A stretch of 37,403 bases of DNA from an uncultured cyanobacterium (GCA_963807635.1 CAWEDJ010000006.1:1-37403); one strand, 5' to 3'. Positions 19,786 through 33,645 are shown, counted from the stretch's first letter. Numbers and translations are program-made. Notes: generated by a model from the letters alone, not told the origin.

Positions 19786-20685
19786 ATGCGCTATCACATC
19801 CATCACAAAACGAGTTATACCTACAATCAACCCGTATTCCTCAAACCCCATCTTGTTAGGCTCCGACCCCGCTCTAATAGTTGGCAAACCCTAGATAACT
19901 TTTTCATTAAAATCACGCCTCAACCCGTCGGTATTTCAGACATTAATGACTTAGACGGTAATAGCGTACAAAAAATTTGGTTTACTGCTCCCACAGAACA
20001 ATTCACCCTTGAAATCGATTCAGAGATTGAAACCCATATCGATAATCCTTTTAATTTTCTCCTAGAACCCTGGGCATTGAAGTTGCCGATGGACTATTCG
20101 ACCTCTTTATTTCATCAACTTCAACCCTATTTACGAACCTATAGTGCCATCCCCGATGCGATCGCCTTAGCTTTAGCCCAGGACATTCTTCACCAAGAAA
20201 AACAAGATGCTTTAGCCTTTCTCAATGCTTTAAATCAACATATTTATAAAAGCTGTAGTTATGTCGTGAGGGAAACGGGAGATCCCTGGGAAGCGGGCAT
20301 CACTTGGCGGAATAAAACAGGTTCCTGTCGGGATTTAACGGTTTTATTTATGGAAGCCTGTCGGGCAGTTGGATTAGCCACTCGATTTGTCAGTGGTTAT
20401 CAAGAAGGGGATCTTTCAACCGATGATTGGGAATTGCACGCCTGGGCAGAAGTCTATTTACCTGGCGGTGGTTGGCGCGGTTACGATCCGACTCATGGAT
20501 TAGTGGTCAGCGATCGGCATATTGCCCTGGTTGCCAGTGCAAACCCCCTCTATACGGCTCCTGTGGTGGGAGAAGTTATGCCAGTCAGTCCATTTATTAC
20601 AACAGGAAAAGCGGTGCAATCAGCAATGCAGACTCAAGTTTTGGTTCGTTTACAAAATTCAGGAATGTCCATGTCCCAATCTTAA
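19786..20685 (+). CDS. Transglutaminase-like family protein (bacterial N-terminal domain + catalytic core)
   Basis: YHIHHKTSYTY...RLRPR N-terminus; Cys-His-Asp triad in GSCRDL, LHAWAEVY, GYDPT. Confidence 0.92.
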   Translation: MRYHIHHKTSYTYNQPVFLKPHLVRLRPRSNSWQTLDNFFIKITPQPVGISDINDLDGNSVQKIWFTAPTEQFTLEIDSEIETHIDNPFNFLLEPWALKLPMDYSTSLFHQLQPYLRTYSAIPDAIALALAQDILHQEKQDALAFLNALNQHIYKSCSYVVRETGDPWEAGITWRNKTGSCRDLTVLFMEACRAVGLATRFVSGYQEGDLSTDDWELHAWAEVYLPGGGWRGYDPTHGLVVSDRHIALVASANPLYTAPVVGEVMPVSPFITTGKAVQSAMQTQVLVRLQNSGMSMSQS

Positions 20686-20771
20686 AAAAACCTTGAAATT
20701 AACTTAAAAGTCACCCAAATGGGTGAAGTAAATAGGGATTTAAAATGGGATTGTAAGAACAGATAGAAGAA

Positions 20772-20851
20772 ATCGTTCATCTCTTCACACGATAGAAAGT
20801 AGTTCGCAAGAGACGGAAGTAAGGACAATAATTTTACCTGAAGGAACGCGC
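20772..20851 (+). promoter_or_regulatory. Glutamine riboswitch (glnA RNA motif, glutamine-I class)
   Basis: ATCGTTCA-TCTCTT...AAGAGA-CGGAAGTA-AGG...CCT-GAAGGAACGCGC: P1 CGTTC/GAACG, P2 TCTCTT/AAGAGA, E-loop AGTA/GAA and P3 AGG/CCT; ends about 31 nt before an ATG with an AGGAG RBS. Confidence 0.88.
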
Positions 20852-20882
20852 TACAAATCCCATTCAAACAGGAGAATTTTTA

Positions 20883-21308
20883 ATGATTCGTAAGACTTTT
20901 TTAACGTTAGCGGTTGTATTTTTTGCGGTTTTAACGCTGGTGACAATGCCCGTAAATGCAGGTGAATTTTCTACCCAAGGAACGGAACAACAATCTAGTC
21001 AATATACTCAAGAAGGTCAAGGGTTTCATCCATCCGATGCGGTTCAATATGCTCAGATAAGCTGGCCTTTCCAAAAAGACCAAAATCAAGGAGAACAGAC
21101 TCAACAGCAATCACAAGAGCCTCAAAATAATAATCAATCCCAAAGCCAAGGGGAACAAACTCAGCAGTATGCTCAGAAGCAACAACCCCAAAATAGTAAT
21201 CAGGGAACTCAGAGCCAACAGGAGCAATCGGAGCAACAACAACAGTCGCCTAACCAAAATGATTCCCAGAGCAATCAAGTAAACCAAGAAGCTCAGAAAG
21301 CGTCTTAA
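20883..21308 (+). CDS. Secreted Gln-rich low-complexity protein of unknown function
   Basis: AGGAG RBS at 20870-20874; Sec-type signal peptide ending VNA; about 41 Gln in about 115 mature residues; repeated QGEQTQQ. Confidence 0.8.
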   Translation: MIRKTFLTLAVVFFAVLTLVTMPVNAGEFSTQGTEQQSSQYTQEGQGFHPSDAVQYAQISWPFQKDQNQGEQTQQQSQEPQNNNQSQSQGEQTQQYAQKQQPQNSNQGTQSQQEQSEQQQQSPNQNDSQSNQVNQEAQKAS

Positions 21309-21347
21309 TCATGTTTTTAGAACGAGTTTAGACTCAATCCTATAACG

Positions 21348-21390
21348 AAAAAACGTGGCCTTTTAATCCATCAAAGGAGCCACGTTTTTT
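21348..21390. terminator. Bidirectional intrinsic terminator
   Basis: AAAAAACGTGGC...GCCACGTTTTTT inverted repeat between two convergent genes. Confidence 0.8.
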
Positions 21391-21434
21391 GATAAGTAAT
21401 TCAATTCCAACTTAAAGTTACTTCTGGAATTCGA

Positions 21435-22868
21435 TTAACCAAAGCGGATCGTCATAAAGATAATACGAGCAACAAAAACTCCTGCTAAAATCCAAGTAAC
21501 GACAGGCACTTCATGGGCTTTACCTTGCATCGATTTGATGATGGGGTAGGTAATCATCCCAACAGATAAACCTGCCGCGATCGAGTAAGTCAGAGGAATG
21601 AGAAAGATGGTTAAAAAAGCAGGAATAGCTTCTCCCATATCGCCCCAACGGATACCCGTTACACTGCCCGTCATTAAAACCCCCGTAATCACCAAGGCAG
21701 GGGTGGTAGCAAAAGCAGGAATGGCTTCAAAAATAGGAATGAAAAACATTGCGAGCAGAAATAAGATACCTGCAACGAGCGCGGTAAATCCACTACGTCC
21801 GCCTTCTGCAATTCCAGATGCTGATTCAACAGCCGTTACTACAGTAGAAGATCCCATGATTGCCCCTGCCGTTGTTGCGATCGCGTCAGACATTAAGACT
21901 TCATTAGCACGGGGAATTTGTCCTTCTTCATCCAGATACCCTGCTTGAGAAGCTAGTCCAGAAAGTGTTCCAATAGTGTCAAAAATATCCACAAACAGGA
22001 ACACCAGCAAGACAGCTAGAAAATCGACCCAATTGCTGGCATTTATGCCACTAACCCCTTTAATTGCTTCTCCAAATAGATGAACCGGTAGGGGAGGTAT
22101 TTGAACTATCCCTTTTGGCCAAGCGGCTGCACCCACAATCCAACCCAAAAAGGCTGTGGCCATAATGCCCCAGAGTAAAGCCCCTTTAATACGTCTCACA
22201 ATAAATGCGGAGGCAATTAAAATCCCTAGAAAAGCCATAACAGTTGGCCATTGACGGAAACTCCCAAAAGCGGTTTTAGTGGCAGGATTGGCCACAATCA
22301 ATCCAGCTCCCCCAAATTTGGGATCACCCGCTAAACCAATATAGGCAATAAATAGACCAATCCCCGCAGTTGTGGCAATTTTAATTGAAGAAGGAATCGC
22401 GACAATGAGATGGCGACGGATATCGGTAACTGTCATGGCAATGAAAATTAATCCTTCCACAAAAACAGCCGCCAAGGCCAACCGCCAGCTAAATCCTAAA
22501 CCAATGACAACAGAGTAGGCAAAATAAGCATTCAATCCCATTCCAGGCATCGTCACAAAAGGATATTTCGCATACAATGCCATGATTAAAGTTCCAACGG
22601 CAGCAGATACCGATGTAGCAATAACCAACTCTGGAAATAAATCTTTGGGTTGCTCTAGAAAAATGGCATCAGACAGAATAATCGGATTTACGACCAGGAT
22701 GTAAGCCATAGTCATAAAAGTCGTAATTCCAGCCACTATCTCCGTGCGAAAGTTGGTTTTATAGAACTCAAATTCAAAGTAGTTAGCTATCTTCGCTTGC
22801 CAGCCCGAATAAGGCGGCGGTGGAGATTGCCCAGATTCAACAAGTTCTAAATTAATGTCATTACTCAT
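21435..22868 (-). CDS. NCS2/AzgA-family guanine/hypoxanthine permease
   Basis: EIVAGITTFMTMAYILVVNP, PGMGLNAYF, DIFDTIGTL, ESASGIAEGGRSG, PLTYSIAAG. Confidence 0.92.
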   Translation of the reverse strand: MSNDINLELVESGQSPPPPYSGWQAKIANYFEFEFYKTNFRTEIVAGITTFMTMAYILVVNPIILSDAIFLEQPKDLFPELVIATSVSAAVGTLIMALYAKYPFVTMPGMGLNAYFAYSVVIGLGFSWRLALAAVFVEGLIFIAMTVTDIRRHLIVAIPSSIKIATTAGIGLFIAYIGLAGDPKFGGAGLIVANPATKTAFGSFRQWPTVMAFLGILIASAFIVRRIKGALLWGIMATAFLGWIVGAAAWPKGIVQIPPLPVHLFGEAIKGVSGINASNWVDFLAVLLVFLFVDIFDTIGTLSGLASQAGYLDEEGQIPRANEVLMSDAIATTAGAIMGSSTVVTAVESASGIAEGGRSGFTALVAGILFLLAMFFIPIFEAIPAFATTPALVITGVLMTGSVTGIRWGDMGEAIPAFLTIFLIPLTYSIAAGLSVGMITYPIIKSMQGKAHEVPVVTWILAGVFVARIIFMTIRFG

Positions 22869-23245: not shown

Positions 23246-24562
23246 ATGCTTAAAGTAATTCGTAGTTCCTTCTTAGATTTTATTGATGATCCTTTTTACA
23301 CCTCAGAAGAAAAGAGTGTTCGTTACCTAGAAGACGGATTATTAGTCCTTGAAAATGGAAAAATTAAAGATTTTGGAACCTACGAACAACTCCATGAAAA
23401 ATATGCGGTTATAGATGCGATCGCCTATCCCGACAAACTCATCATGCCAGGGTTCATTGATACCCATATTCACTATCCCCAAACCGCAATGGTGGCAGCC
23501 TACGGAGAGCAATTATTGGAATGGTTGAGTAAATATACTTTTCCCACCGAAGCAAAATTTAAAGATAAAAATTACGCTCAGGAAATTGCCACCGTCTTTT
23601 TAGATGAACTGCTCAAAAATGGAACCACGACAGCTTTAGTTTTTGCCGCCGTTTTTCCTGAATCCGTCGATGCCTTTTTTGAAGAAGCCGAACGTCGCAA
23701 CCTGCGAATGATTGCGGGGAAAGTGATGATGAACCGCAATGCCCCTGATTTTCTGCTGGATACCGCCCAATCTTCCTATGACGAAACTAAAGCTTTGATT
23801 GAAAAATGGCATCAGAAAGGACGCTTACTCTACGCCGTAACGCCCCGTTTTGCCATCACCTCTACCGATGAGCAATTGGAGCTCGCGGGTAAACTGTTAT
23901 CAGAATTTCCTGACGTTTATTTGCATACCCATTTGTCAGAAAATGTTAACGAAGTCCAGTTTATCGCCGAACTTTTCCCCAACAGTAAAGGCTATCTAGA
24001 TGTCTATGACCAAGCAGGTTTAGTCAAAGAAAAATCCATCTTTGCTCATGGAGTTCAACTCACCGATCAAGAATTTAAACGCTTATCAGAAACCAAGTCT
24101 GCCATTTCTTTTTGTCCCACTTCTAATTTGTTTTTAGGTAGTGGTTTATTCAAACTCCATCAGGCCAAATCTATCGAAACTCCTGTGAAAGTCGGCTTAG
24201 GAACGGATATTGGGGCAGGAACTAGTTTTTCCTTATTACAAACTGCCAATGAAGCCTATAAAGTCGTACAATTACAAGGTGAAAAATTATCTTCCTTCAA
24301 AGCGTTATTTTTAGCGACTTTAGGAGGGGCAAGGGCATTGTCTTTAGAAGATAAATTAGGAAATTTTGAGATCGGAAAAGAAGCTGATTTTATCGTACTC
24401 GATCCCAAGGCAACCCCTGCAATGGCATTACGGAATGCAGACTTCCCTGTAAAAACCCTAGAAGACATAGCAGATAAAGCTTTTGCGATCATGATTATGG
24501 GAGACGATCGCACCATCGAAGCCACTTATATTATGGGAGAAATTGCCTATCAATCTGTTTAG
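23246..24562 (+). CDS. guaD: Guanine deaminase
   Basis: PGFIDTHIHYPQ, GEQLLEWLSKYTFPTE, AVTPRFA, HTHLSEN, GLGTDIGAGTS. Confidence 0.95.
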   Translation: MLKVIRSSFLDFIDDPFYTSEEKSVRYLEDGLLVLENGKIKDFGTYEQLHEKYAVIDAIAYPDKLIMPGFIDTHIHYPQTAMVAAYGEQLLEWLSKYTFPTEAKFKDKNYAQEIATVFLDELLKNGTTTALVFAAVFPESVDAFFEEAERRNLRMIAGKVMMNRNAPDFLLDTAQSSYDETKALIEKWHQKGRLLYAVTPRFAITSTDEQLELAGKLLSEFPDVYLHTHLSENVNEVQFIAELFPNSKGYLDVYDQAGLVKEKSIFAHGVQLTDQEFKRLSETKSAISFCPTSNLFLGSGLFKLHQAKSIETPVKVGLGTDIGAGTSFSLLQTANEAYKVVQLQGEKLSSFKALFLATLGGARALSLEDKLGNFEIGKEADFIVLDPKATPAMALRNADFPVKTLEDIADKAFAIMIMGDDRTIEATYIMGEIAYQSV

Positions 24563-25001: not shown

Positions 25002-26859
25002 GTGAACAATTTTTCTAATTTTGTATTGCGAAAACTAGTATTACGGCGATTTTCCTTGGGATTGATGGCCGCCTCTGTGGGAATGTTTTGGGCAGTAGAG
25101 AATGCTTCTCGTACTGCCCAGGCTCAATCTTTATCGGGAGATATTCCCAAGGTCTCGGAGTTGGCAAACCCTGCCTCAACCGACCTGTCTGACATAAAAT
25201 CCTTCAAAAGTAATCAGCCCCAACGTTATCAACTCAACTCCAAATCTACCTCTACCTCGGATTCTCTTTCCCAGGTCACGTCTGTTTCGGAATTACGAGA
25301 TGTGCAACCCACTGAGTGGGCCTATGAGGCGTTGAAAAGCTTAGTTGAACGTTATGGTTGTATCGTTGGCTATCCCGATCGCACCTTTCGGGGGAATCGC
25401 GCTCTCAGTCGTTGGGAATTTGCCGCAGGTTTGAATGCCTGTATGAACGTCATGGAACGTTTACTCCAGGAAAATGTGACCGTCTTGAGAGAAGATATCG
25501 ATAAGCTCAAGACCCTAGCCCAGCAATTTGAACAGGAATTAGCCCAACTCGGTGCAAGAGTCGATAATCTAGAAACTCGTACCGCTTATTTGGAAGATCA
25601 TCAATTCTCGACCACCACGAAACTATCAGGTCAAACCTTTATTTACCTGAGTGGGGCTGGAAGTGGCGGAAACATTCGGGCAGAAGGAGCCAATGTCTTT
25701 ACTCCCTTCAATCCAGCACGGAATCCTGATGACAACATTCCCATTTCCCGTGTCATCACAGACCAACCAGGGATAACGATGAGTTATTTAAGTTGGATTA
25801 ACTTTGAAACCTCCTTTACAGGGAAAGATAATTTAACCGTCCAATTGGTCCGTCGGTAACGGGGACGCTCCTGCGAACCAATTCCTCTCGGCAGGTTTTT
25901 ATAACTCAACGGGAACGCCTTTCCCCCTACAAACGGGTGCAGATACGGGAAATAAGGTCGTTATCCGAGACCTGTTTTATAGTTTCCCCGCCGCTGATAA
26001 TCTCCAGTTAGTGGTCGGGCCACGGATTAATCTCTATCGTTATTTTGATGGCAACCGTTTCACCTATTTCATCAATGGGCCAGAAAGCTTTAACAGTAGT
26101 GGTTCAACCCAGTTTGCGACCGTTGACCGAGGTTCGGGAGCCGTAGCAGATTGGAAAATTAACGATACGTTTCGTTTTACAGCCGCTTATGTCGGTGCCA
26201 GTAATGAATTTTTACCCCAAGACTTTTCAACCGCGAATGATCCTAAGTTTGGTTGGTTTGGTGGCTCCTGGACGGCGATCGCGCAATTGAGTATTGCCGC
26301 CACCGATAACCTCAATCTACGATTCCTCTATGCCCGTTCCCGCATGGAACCCGATCCCTTTAATGGTTTTGTCGGTGGTGCTATTGGCGAACCTCTACCC
26401 TATGGCTTTGCCGATGATGGCTTTGGGGGAACCTTACGCCATGCCTTTGCCGATACCTACCTCTTTAATATGGATTGGTTAGTCACCGAAGGCTTTGGAT
26501 TATTTGGGCGATATAGTTACGGCAGCACTAGTCTTACCCCGACCAATGCAGCCCGCTCAGGTGGTACCGTTAACTCCCAATCGGTACAGGTCGGTTTTGC
26601 CTTGCCTGACTTAGGGAAACAAGGGGCCCAAGCAAATGTTTCTTATCTAATCCCCATGTCTGTCACCAGTGGACGGGAATTCCTCGTTTCAGGTGGTGGA
26701 GATGGCGGTGTCCAGTCTGAGATCGAAGTGAATTATTATTACCCAATCAACAATAATATTTCCATCGTTCCATCTTTTTATCTGATCATGAAACCCAACA
26801 ACTTTACGAGTAATGGGCCCATTTATGTCGGAAATTTGCGGACTCAGTTCTCTTTCTAG
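25002..26859 (+). CDS. Cyanobacterial outer-membrane porin (SLH + OprB-type); frameshift near 25850
   Basis: SLH domain ELRDVQPTEWAYEALKSLVERYGC, FSTTTKLSG, C-terminal GNLRTQFSF; removing one C near 25850 joins ORFs 25002-25859 and 26011-26859. Confidence 0.9.
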
Positions 26860-33558: not shown

Positions 33559-33645
33559 GGAGAGGTGGCCGAGTGGTTGAAGGCGCAGCACTGGAAATGC
33601 TGTTTAGGGGTAACTTTAACGAGGGTTCGAATCCCTCCCTCTCCG
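33559..33645 (+). tRNA. trnS: tRNA-Ser (anticodon GGA), CCA not encoded
   Basis: GGAGAGG/CCTCTCC acceptor stem, anticodon arm CAGCA-CTGGAAA-TGCTG, long variable arm, GGTTCGAATCC T-loop. Confidence 0.97.

Follow-up and report, generated by a model that had tools for sequence, protein, structure and literature searches.

A type-1 glutamine riboswitch ahead of a Snowella-specific gene for a putatively exported glutamine-rich protein

We analysed a stretch of 37,403 nucleotides from an uncultured cyanobacterium (GCA_963807635.1, CAWEDJ010000006.1:1-37403), here called the window, in which a type-1 glutamine riboswitch stands directly before an open reading frame (ORF) for a glutamine-rich protein. 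A little beyond an even balance, we lean to the reading that this riboswitch controls the translation of an exported pre-protein specific to the genus Snowella; the weakest step in it is the proposed role of the product in the cell envelope or matrix, gated by glutamine supply. The sensor itself was already known; what is new, so far as our searches reach, is its target, and also that the genus which uses it in this way has lost the canonical one. No description of the pairing of this riboswitch with a glutamine-rich exported protein was found in the literature searched, which did not cover the supplementary tables of PMC6212724. The original prediction had proposed an undescribed nitrogen-responsive system; within that search the pairing is indeed without a description, while "system" overstates what is one monocistronic gene in one genus.

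The riboswitch and the glutamine-rich gene

The features on which the argument rests are the following.

20772-20852, + strand: aptamer of a type-1 glutamine riboswitch (glnA RNA, RF01739) with a long P2 insert, from Infernal/Rfam
20774-20778/20844-20848, + strand: P1 stem, from alignment and sequence
20780-20784/20809-20813, + strand: P2 stem, from alignment and sequence
20822-20824/20837-20839, + strand: P3 stem, from alignment and sequence
20837-20840, + strand: CCUG, made up of the 3' strand of P3 and one further base, a candidate anti-Shine-Dalgarno sequence, from RNAalifold and single-sequence folds
20870-20874, + strand: Shine-Dalgarno sequence (SD) AGGAG, 8 nt ahead of the ATG, with GGAG invariant in 7 loci
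20883-21308, + strand: glutamine-rich ORF of 141 amino acids (aa) with 41 Gln, from translation
20883-20960, + strand: signal-peptide-like N-terminus, residues 1-26, made of MIRK, 18 hydrophobic residues and PVNA, from manual reading
20961-21308, + strand: mature region of 115 aa and stop codon, from composition and alignments

The window aptamer is a genuine type-1 glutamine riboswitch, for which binding of L-glutamine is predicted. A covariance search of the whole window with Infernal and Rfam recovered RF01739 over model positions 1-53 of 53, scoring 55.0 bits where the gathering score is 35 (E 1.4e-9), and thereby bears out the glnA motif with P1, P2, E-loop and P3 that had been read from the sequence. 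The only other match above the gathering score was a tRNA at 33559-33645. In the cmscan alignment the three stems and the conserved junction and E-loop sequences ACGGAAGUA and GAAGGAACGC are all present, and the strongly conserved consensus stretches AUCGUUCA, ACGGAAGUA and GAAGGAACGC are identical in the window aptamer. An extra-long hairpin inserted in P2 brings it to 81 nt, compared with 57-66 nt in many relatives. Across the window's own assembly (4.03 Mb, 107 contigs, 93.7% complete) this is the single RF01739 match. The aptamer does end close before the AGGAG ribosome-binding site (RBS), as had been noted, although the spacing after the end of the Rfam match is 17 nt and not about 19.

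All seven independent loci that carry the gene, namely the window, the sister species G002-G005 and two metagenome contigs, have RF01739 immediately upstream. In the six loci outside the window the aptamer is 81-82 nt long and scores 50.3-55.4 bits; one relative (L032) has a C to U change within ACGG and yet reaches 50.3 bits. The proteins form two clades, A and B, about 45-54% identical to each other, both of which keep the ATG, the SD and the layout of the signal peptide. With a protein profile the gene was found in five of the six Snowella species genomes and in no genome of 18 sister genera in its family, of which 83 were scanned. Among 5.8 billion proteins, a word-seeded search recovered 30 clusters, all within the two clades, and a filter-only HMMER scan of 1.84 billion representatives gave five hits, four of the glutamine-rich family and one spurious. 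The homologue search suggested with the original prediction has therefore returned Snowella relatives only, and as far as these searches can tell the protein is a genus-restricted orphan, no relatives having been found outside Snowella. Two leads from the database searches were rejected: P0031 (E 1.5e-5) is a 1551-aa adhesin-like repetitive protein that matches through a short DAVNFAQL-type repeat, and the labels "Ca-activated chloride channel family protein" and "...homolog", carried by 4 of the 30 clusters in Joint Genome Institute (JGI) data, have no Pfam support and are an annotation artefact.

The ORF is a real gene, whose reading frame is under purifying selection that preserves glutamine. 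The ratio of nonsynonymous to synonymous substitution rates (dN/dS) was 0.09-0.36 over the whole gene (Nei-Gojobori, 8 pairs, with two stop-carrying sequences cut at the stop) and 0.04-0.17 in the glutamine-rich tail for seven of the eight pairs, the remaining pair being saturated. Many CAA/CAG exchanges leave glutamine unchanged, and variation in length consists of whole codons or whole repeats, in multiples of three. Furthermore, leader and ORF lie on one contig in the RNA libraries of four freshwater studies, which is consistent with their co-transcription. The contigs cover 20779-20995 in X3, 20803-21216 in X5, and 20775-20867 and 20883-21191 in X2; those of two studies begin at 20775 and 20779, and no contig of the four RNA runs covers 20441-20769 or 21381-21700. 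Word depth in run X5 was 218 on the contig with leader and ORF and 2-5 on contigs of the upstream gene, figures that do not rank expression.

The counts of about 41 Gln and 10 Asn in a mature part of 115 residues are confirmed. After the proposed cleavage site VNA26/G27 there are 41 Gln, 10 Asn, 15 Ser, 12 Asp plus Glu and 3 Lys plus Arg, so that the mature region is 36% Gln, 9% Asn and 13% Ser and net acidic. Alignments of 5 and of 25 sequences show in it a conserved motif VQYAQ[IV]SWPFQ and NQGEQTxQYxQ repeats. The glutamine fraction of the whole product, 0.29, is the highest among 3,716 ORFs of the genome (Met-started, at least 100 aa, six frames), for which the mean is 0.049. From the N-terminus, which by manual reading has a positive n-region, an 18-residue hydrophobic core and V-N-A before G27 (AIA or ANA in clade B), we infer export by the Sec pathway. 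Because basic residues precede the hydrophobic core, the glutamine-rich part should come to lie outside the cytoplasm with or without cleavage of the N-terminus. Cleavage after VNA26 would leave an acidic, disordered protein of 115 residues with 36% Gln, which could reside in the periplasm, the thylakoid lumen or the colony mucilage. The maximum hydropathy over 12 residues is 2.7-3.2 in the sister-species homologues, to which this comparison applies rather than to the window's own product, and at most 1.3 in the DUF4278-like, IF7-like and FxFxxW products that follow the aptamer elsewhere. AlphaFold, with the alignment of 25 sequences, predicts a helix at residues 2-21 only, with a mean per-residue confidence score (pLDDT) of 49.9 and 88 of the 141 residues below 50; beyond this helix the protein is predicted to be intrinsically disordered, of low complexity and Q/N-rich.

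No Pfam family was found for the ORF at E <= 0.01 and no NCBIfam family likewise, while the same Pfam library scores the IF17-type protein of a relative at E 1.8e-25. With its acidic composition, this agrees with the earlier statement that the ORF does not resemble the basic cytoplasmic proteins of the IF17/DUF4278 type. Look-alikes from the ESM Atlas were discarded, as their best score (0.80) lies below the level reached by shuffled proteins. The same genome has another signal-peptide-bearing glutamine-rich ORF (C56:27739-28116, + strand), of 126 aa and 22% Gln with QxxQG-type repeats; it differs in kind from the riboswitch-controlled protein, and the genome has no second RF01739 match.

Proposed control of translation

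The start codon lies at 20883, 30 nt after the end of the aptamer. This leaves no room for a hairpin terminator, and translational control is thus the simplest reading. In four sister-species loci the distance from the end of the 3' strand of P1 (GGAACG) to the ATG is 33-34 nt, inside the 27-54 nt that the same distance spans in DUF4278-like leaders. For gifB of Synechocystis, the relevant passages of PMC6212724 report that glutamine enhances translation and postulate an RBS-blocking helix beside the 3' end of the aptamer; in the proposal given there, glutamine binding reorients P3 and melts this inhibitory helix.

A comparable helix is modelled at the window locus. The RNAalifold consensus of the seven loci pairs 20837-20840 with 20869-20872, two of the pairs (CC:GG) being invariant, and the helix between CCUG and the SD is also present in single-sequence folds. 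In the minimum-energy fold of clade A (n=5), AAUUUU-A-CCUG from the P3 loop and 3' strand pairs with CAGG-A-GAAUU around the SD. With the aptamer enforced, the first two G of GGAG become more accessible in these five sequences, their modelled unpaired probability going from 0.01-0.18 to 0.23-0.39; for the window SD it goes from 0.05 to 0.31. In the mechanism that we propose, CCUG (20837-20840) would pair without glutamine with CAGG (20869-20872), the start of the SD region; with glutamine bound, P3 would be locked into the aptamer, AGGAG would be freed and translation would be ON. The modelled CCUG:CAGG helix fits the published proposal on P3, by which the switch would be ON; the evidence for this is modest.

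The Snowella leader resembles that of gifB in Synechocystis sp. PCC 6803 (PMC6212724) in its aptamer family, in the place of the aptamer some 30 nt ahead of the start with the SD in between and, probably, in its translational ON logic. It differs in its 81-nt aptamer with long P2, and in its target, an exported, acidic, disordered and glutamine-rich protein by prediction, which is not gifB/DUF4278. The arrangement also recalls the leader peptides of the his, trp and leu attenuators, in that the coding sequence is enriched in the amino acid that governs its expression. However, no downstream gene is controlled here: the ORF is followed by a strong terminator, beyond which lies a convergent gene. 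The sensor is an RNA aptamer and not a stalling ribosome, and 141 aa with a putative export signal make the peptide the product and not the sensor.

Targets of the riboswitch in relatives and in Snowella

The type-1 glutamine riboswitch of cyanobacteria has been described as a feedback device on glutamine synthetase that acts through gifB. In a set of 60 genomes the aptamer precedes DUF4278 in 25 of the 28 genomes that carry it, and for other targets the passages on this subject mention some proteins without Pfam matches and say no more of them (Klahn 2018, PMC6212724). Our survey of the genes behind the aptamer covered 75 aptamers, 51 above cut-off from 27 of 41 related genomes and 24 more from 151 genomes sampled evenly across the phylum. 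The first plausible downstream ORF was classed by motif and by eye (one DUF4278 was Pfam-confirmed), with the result below.

36 of 75 aptamers: DUF4278/IF17-like proteins
15 of 75 aptamers: membrane protein of about 74 aa with two transmembrane segments (2-TM)
11 of 75 aptamers: IF7-like proteins
5 of 75 aptamers: Snowella glutamine-rich protein
3 of 75 aptamers: small proteins with an FxFxxW motif (L004, L006, L009)
2 of 75 aptamers: proteins with a QWQTYQxLE motif (L056:1103-1384, L075)
3 of 75 aptamers: class of the downstream ORF unclear

This survey, of the kind that the original prediction had called for, places a putatively secreted glutamine-rich ORF behind the aptamer in Snowella only; none was found outside the genus among the 75 aptamers, where the top glutamine fraction was 0.18, in a 49-aa IF7-like protein. 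The survey points to at least five additional classes of small proteins without a DUF4278-like or IF7-like motif as targets of the switch, one of them the widespread 2-TM protein. The glutamine regulon of cyanobacteria may hence be broader than gifB, and the glutamine-rich gene is of more interest as part of this wider undescribed set of non-gifB targets than on its own.

DUF4278 was found above cut-off in none of the six Snowella genomes, and the sole aptamer is kept; the aptamer thus serves a different gene. The genus therefore keeps a single aptamer and uses it on a gene other than gifB/DUF4278: a whole genus retains the sensor without gifB and places it before an orphan, putatively exported protein that mirrors the ligand. 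Two Snowella species, G001 and G005, have an IF7 gene; G002 gave a weak hit, and no significant match was found in the clade-A genomes G000, G003 and G004. For IF7 and IF17 in the window's own genome, tblastn with the proteins of relatives gave hits at E >= 0.012 only, the best two of which are interrupted by stop codons, and these candidates were rejected. The clade-A genomes G000, G003 and G004 thus have neither IF17 (DUF4278) nor IF7 detected, and a type-I glutamine synthetase is present in G000.

Like IF7 and IF17 (gifA and gifB), the Snowella protein is small and apparently tied to the glutamine level. IF7-type proteins are also largely unstructured. IF7 and IF17, however, are basic and cytoplasmic, with a motif ...RQQSML.RAA.EIG, whereas acidity, a signal-peptide-like N-terminus and the lack of a DUF4278 match set the Snowella protein apart. 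Its likeness to the 2-TM family is that both would be non-cytoplasmic targets of a long-P2 type-1 aptamer other than glutamine synthetase factors. The two are not homologous, and descent from the riboswitch-controlled 2-TM protein was discarded at an hhalign probability of 3.5%; the Snowella copy of the 2-TM gene, in the window's own genome (C55:11012-11221, L074:1513-1722), has no riboswitch.

The 2-TM protein has the consensus MLVxSLITLAIASVSAFLSxN..EEV.KVA...LTL.FAPW.LKL...IP and is found behind long-P2 aptamers in other unicellular cyanobacteria, for example at L071:1109-1330 and L061:1117-1338. It makes up 118 database clusters (E <= 1e-5), in Crocosphaera, Cyanothece, Rippkaea, Gloeothece, UCYN-A, Phormidium and others, and has no Pfam or NCBIfam family; many of the clusters bear the name "riboflavin synthase subunit alpha", apparently a mis-annotation that has been passed on. 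The FxFxxW and QWQTYQxLE classes, which stand directly behind aptamers in relatives, likewise have no family assignment.

Possible roles and surroundings of the gene

Snowella is a colonial freshwater genus embedded in mucilage, and the gene occurs in no other genus searched. We favour for the protein, as the weakest step of our reading, a role as an extracytoplasmic component of the envelope or matrix of nitrogen-replete cells, and prefer this to a nitrogen store; the heavy demand of the protein for glutamine would be the reason for tying its synthesis to the glutamine pool. If the coupling is functional, it would link intracellular glutamine status to the cell envelope or the colony matrix, and would offer a natural test case for riboswitch gating of proteins that are costly in the metabolite sensed. 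In composition the product is like Q/N-rich prion-like or hydrogel domains and curli-type Q/N repeat proteins, being rich in Gln, Asn, Ser and Tyr, repetitive and predicted to be disordered. The likeness is one of composition only, as no beta-structure is predicted and there are no curli-like secretion partners nearby.

Several observations speak against our favoured reading. An in-frame stop interrupts the glutamine-rich tail in two of the seven loci, after residue 99 in G004 (L031:3001-3297) and after residue 120 in a metagenome contig (L053:1501-1860), which implies that some strains can do without the tail, or without the gene. The frame beyond these stops is otherwise conserved, and because Gln codons are one step from TAA or TAG such alleles are to be expected. 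Both the aptamer and the gene are missing from G001, a Snowella genome that is 99% complete; this genome lacks the neighbouring permease as well, so that it provides no empty-site comparison. The contigs from RNA libraries may contain DNA, and give no ends, strand or level. In the folding models the release of the SD is not reproduced for the two sequences of clade B (the unpaired probability falls from 0.13 to 0.06 in one and stays at 0.30 in the other), the CCUG:SD helix has 0 compensatory pairs in the RNAalifold consensus with one pair broken in one clade-B sequence, and the complete leader is no more stable when folded than shuffled sequence (z +1.81). The glutamine-ON direction at the window locus is drawn by analogy to gifB only. 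Finally, the N-terminus could be a membrane anchor, its cleavage being only predicted.

A bolder version, which we consider rather unlikely, is that Snowella lost the IF17 feedback and rewired its sole glutamine riboswitch, so that a rise in glutamine would lead to the export of a one-third-Gln protein as nitrogen buffer or hydrogel matrix. If true, glutamine surplus would be handled by export and not by inhibition of glutamine synthetase, and the exported protein would possibly be shared with bacteria attached to the colony.

The related idea of a nitrogen sink or store, by which glutamine overflow is turned into a ribosomally made, exported protein that serves as amide-nitrogen reserve or valve, and which might replace the lost IF17 feedback on glutamine synthetase, is unlikely in our judgement. 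It agrees with the exceptional Gln content of the mature part and of the ORF among the 3,716 compared, with control of the gene by a glutamine sensor, with the selection that holds Gln in place and with the failure to find a DUF4278 or IF7-like gene in the window's own genome. However, cyanophycin is the usual nitrogen store of cyanobacteria and holds far more nitrogen per residue, and a genuine cyanophycin synthetase (cphA) is encoded at another place in this genome (1231 bits against a cut-off of 850). Ribosomal synthesis followed by export is a costly route to storage, and the gain in side-chain nitrogen is modest, with 0.50 per residue in the mature protein against a genome mean of 0.35 (standard deviation 0.07), about two standard deviations above. 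No protease, re-uptake or partner gene is conserved beside the gene, whose neighbours differ by clade. The amide-nitrogen store or overflow role raised in the original prediction is weakened by the cyanophycin synthetase and by the modest nitrogen gain.

Quite unlikely, in our view, is an extracytoplasmic regulator, that is, a membrane-anchored or periplasmic protein that damps nitrogen uptake when glutamine is high, with ammonium, nitrate, urea or amino-acid transporters as candidate targets and as an outside-membrane counterpart of the factors that inactivate glutamine synthetase. All other classes behind the riboswitch are small proteins, and the 15 of 75 aptamers that precede the 2-TM protein indicate that membrane-side targets of glutamine signalling are common; moreover, the best-conserved part, VQYAQ[IV]SWPFQ, is short and could be a binding epitope. 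Against this, there is no partner, conserved neighbour or structure, and low-complexity repeats, variable in number from strain to strain, account for 75 of the 115 mature residues.

An OFF switch, in which glutamine would turn the gene down and the protein would be produced when nitrogen is limiting, we regard as very unlikely. The folding model does not hold in clade B, which would suit it, but the alternative fold of clade A sequesters the SD when the aptamer is not formed, and a 36%-Gln protein made under glutamine scarcity would be paradoxical. The sole characterised cyanobacterial type-1 switch, according to the relevant passages of PMC6212724, is ON. That the ORF is incidental, the transcript acting as RNA or the glutamine frame being an untranslated by-product of CAA/CAG-rich sequence, is highly improbable: the repeat region is open in other frames too and on the opposite strand, and premature stops occur, but the low in-frame dN/dS with synonymous CAA/CAG turnover, the layout kept between such divergent clades and the length changes in multiples of three all oppose it.

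Around the gene, three further features were read.

20711-20726, no strand assigned: palindrome TCACCC-N4-GGGTGA, 16 bp, 45 nt upstream of the aptamer, from the alignment of 5 loci
20741-20746, + strand: putative -10 hexamer TAAAAT, read from the sequence, AT-rich in both clades
21348-21390, bidirectional: intrinsic terminator hairpin with A6 and U6 flanks, from folding

Both arms of the palindrome are invariant in the alignment of five loci, and it is kept in both clades despite different upstream genes; the region was also flagged as a minus-strand hairpin. A loose search for CACCC-N3-6-GGGTG gives only four matches across the 4.03 Mb of the genome, and no second site was found; it is hence not a dispersed repeat, and a regulon based on it was rejected on the same count. 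It is possibly an operator or a promoter-associated element. The hexamer TAAAAT, which was not called at 20741-20746 in the promoter scan, would set the start of transcription about 19 nt before the aptamer. An NtcA box read by eye, GTA-N8-TAG at 20754-20767, was rejected, as it has one mismatch to GTA-N8-TAC and is not kept in clade B.

The terminator that had been predicted to close the ORF is well supported: the 96-nt stretch around the hairpin folds with -23.2 kcal/mol (z = -4.46), and none of 200 shuffles was as stable. The consensus terminator scan missed it because its loop is longer than 8 nt. It is common to the glutamine-rich gene and a convergent permease gene (21435-22868, - strand). 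Since the neighbours vary between the clades, the conserved unit is the upstream region, the riboswitch, the ORF and the terminator, that is, a monocistronic single gene with its own upstream region and riboswitch leader.

The gene upstream (19786-20685) is transglutaminase-like and adjoins the glutamine-rich gene in clade A only (G000, G003, G004); in clade B an M48 peptidase gene on the other strand or a gene for a DUF697 protein takes its place. Cross-linking of a glutamine-rich substrate by the transglutaminase was therefore rejected as a conserved link, and by eye the enzyme has no export signal. Downstream, the permease is of the xanthine/uracil family and is followed by an amidohydrolase (23246-24562, + strand), possibly a purine deaminase. 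Both adjoin the glutamine-rich gene in clade A and in G002 and not in G005, one clade-B genome being without the downstream permease. A link to nitrogen scavenging through these neighbours is possible, although they are not conserved. Further along, two adjacent ORFs on the + strand, 25002-25859 and 26011-26859, correspond to the N-terminal (SLH and OprB 1-79) and C-terminal (OprB 148-372) parts of a porin, and are probably a split or frameshifted gene for an OprB carbohydrate-selective porin.

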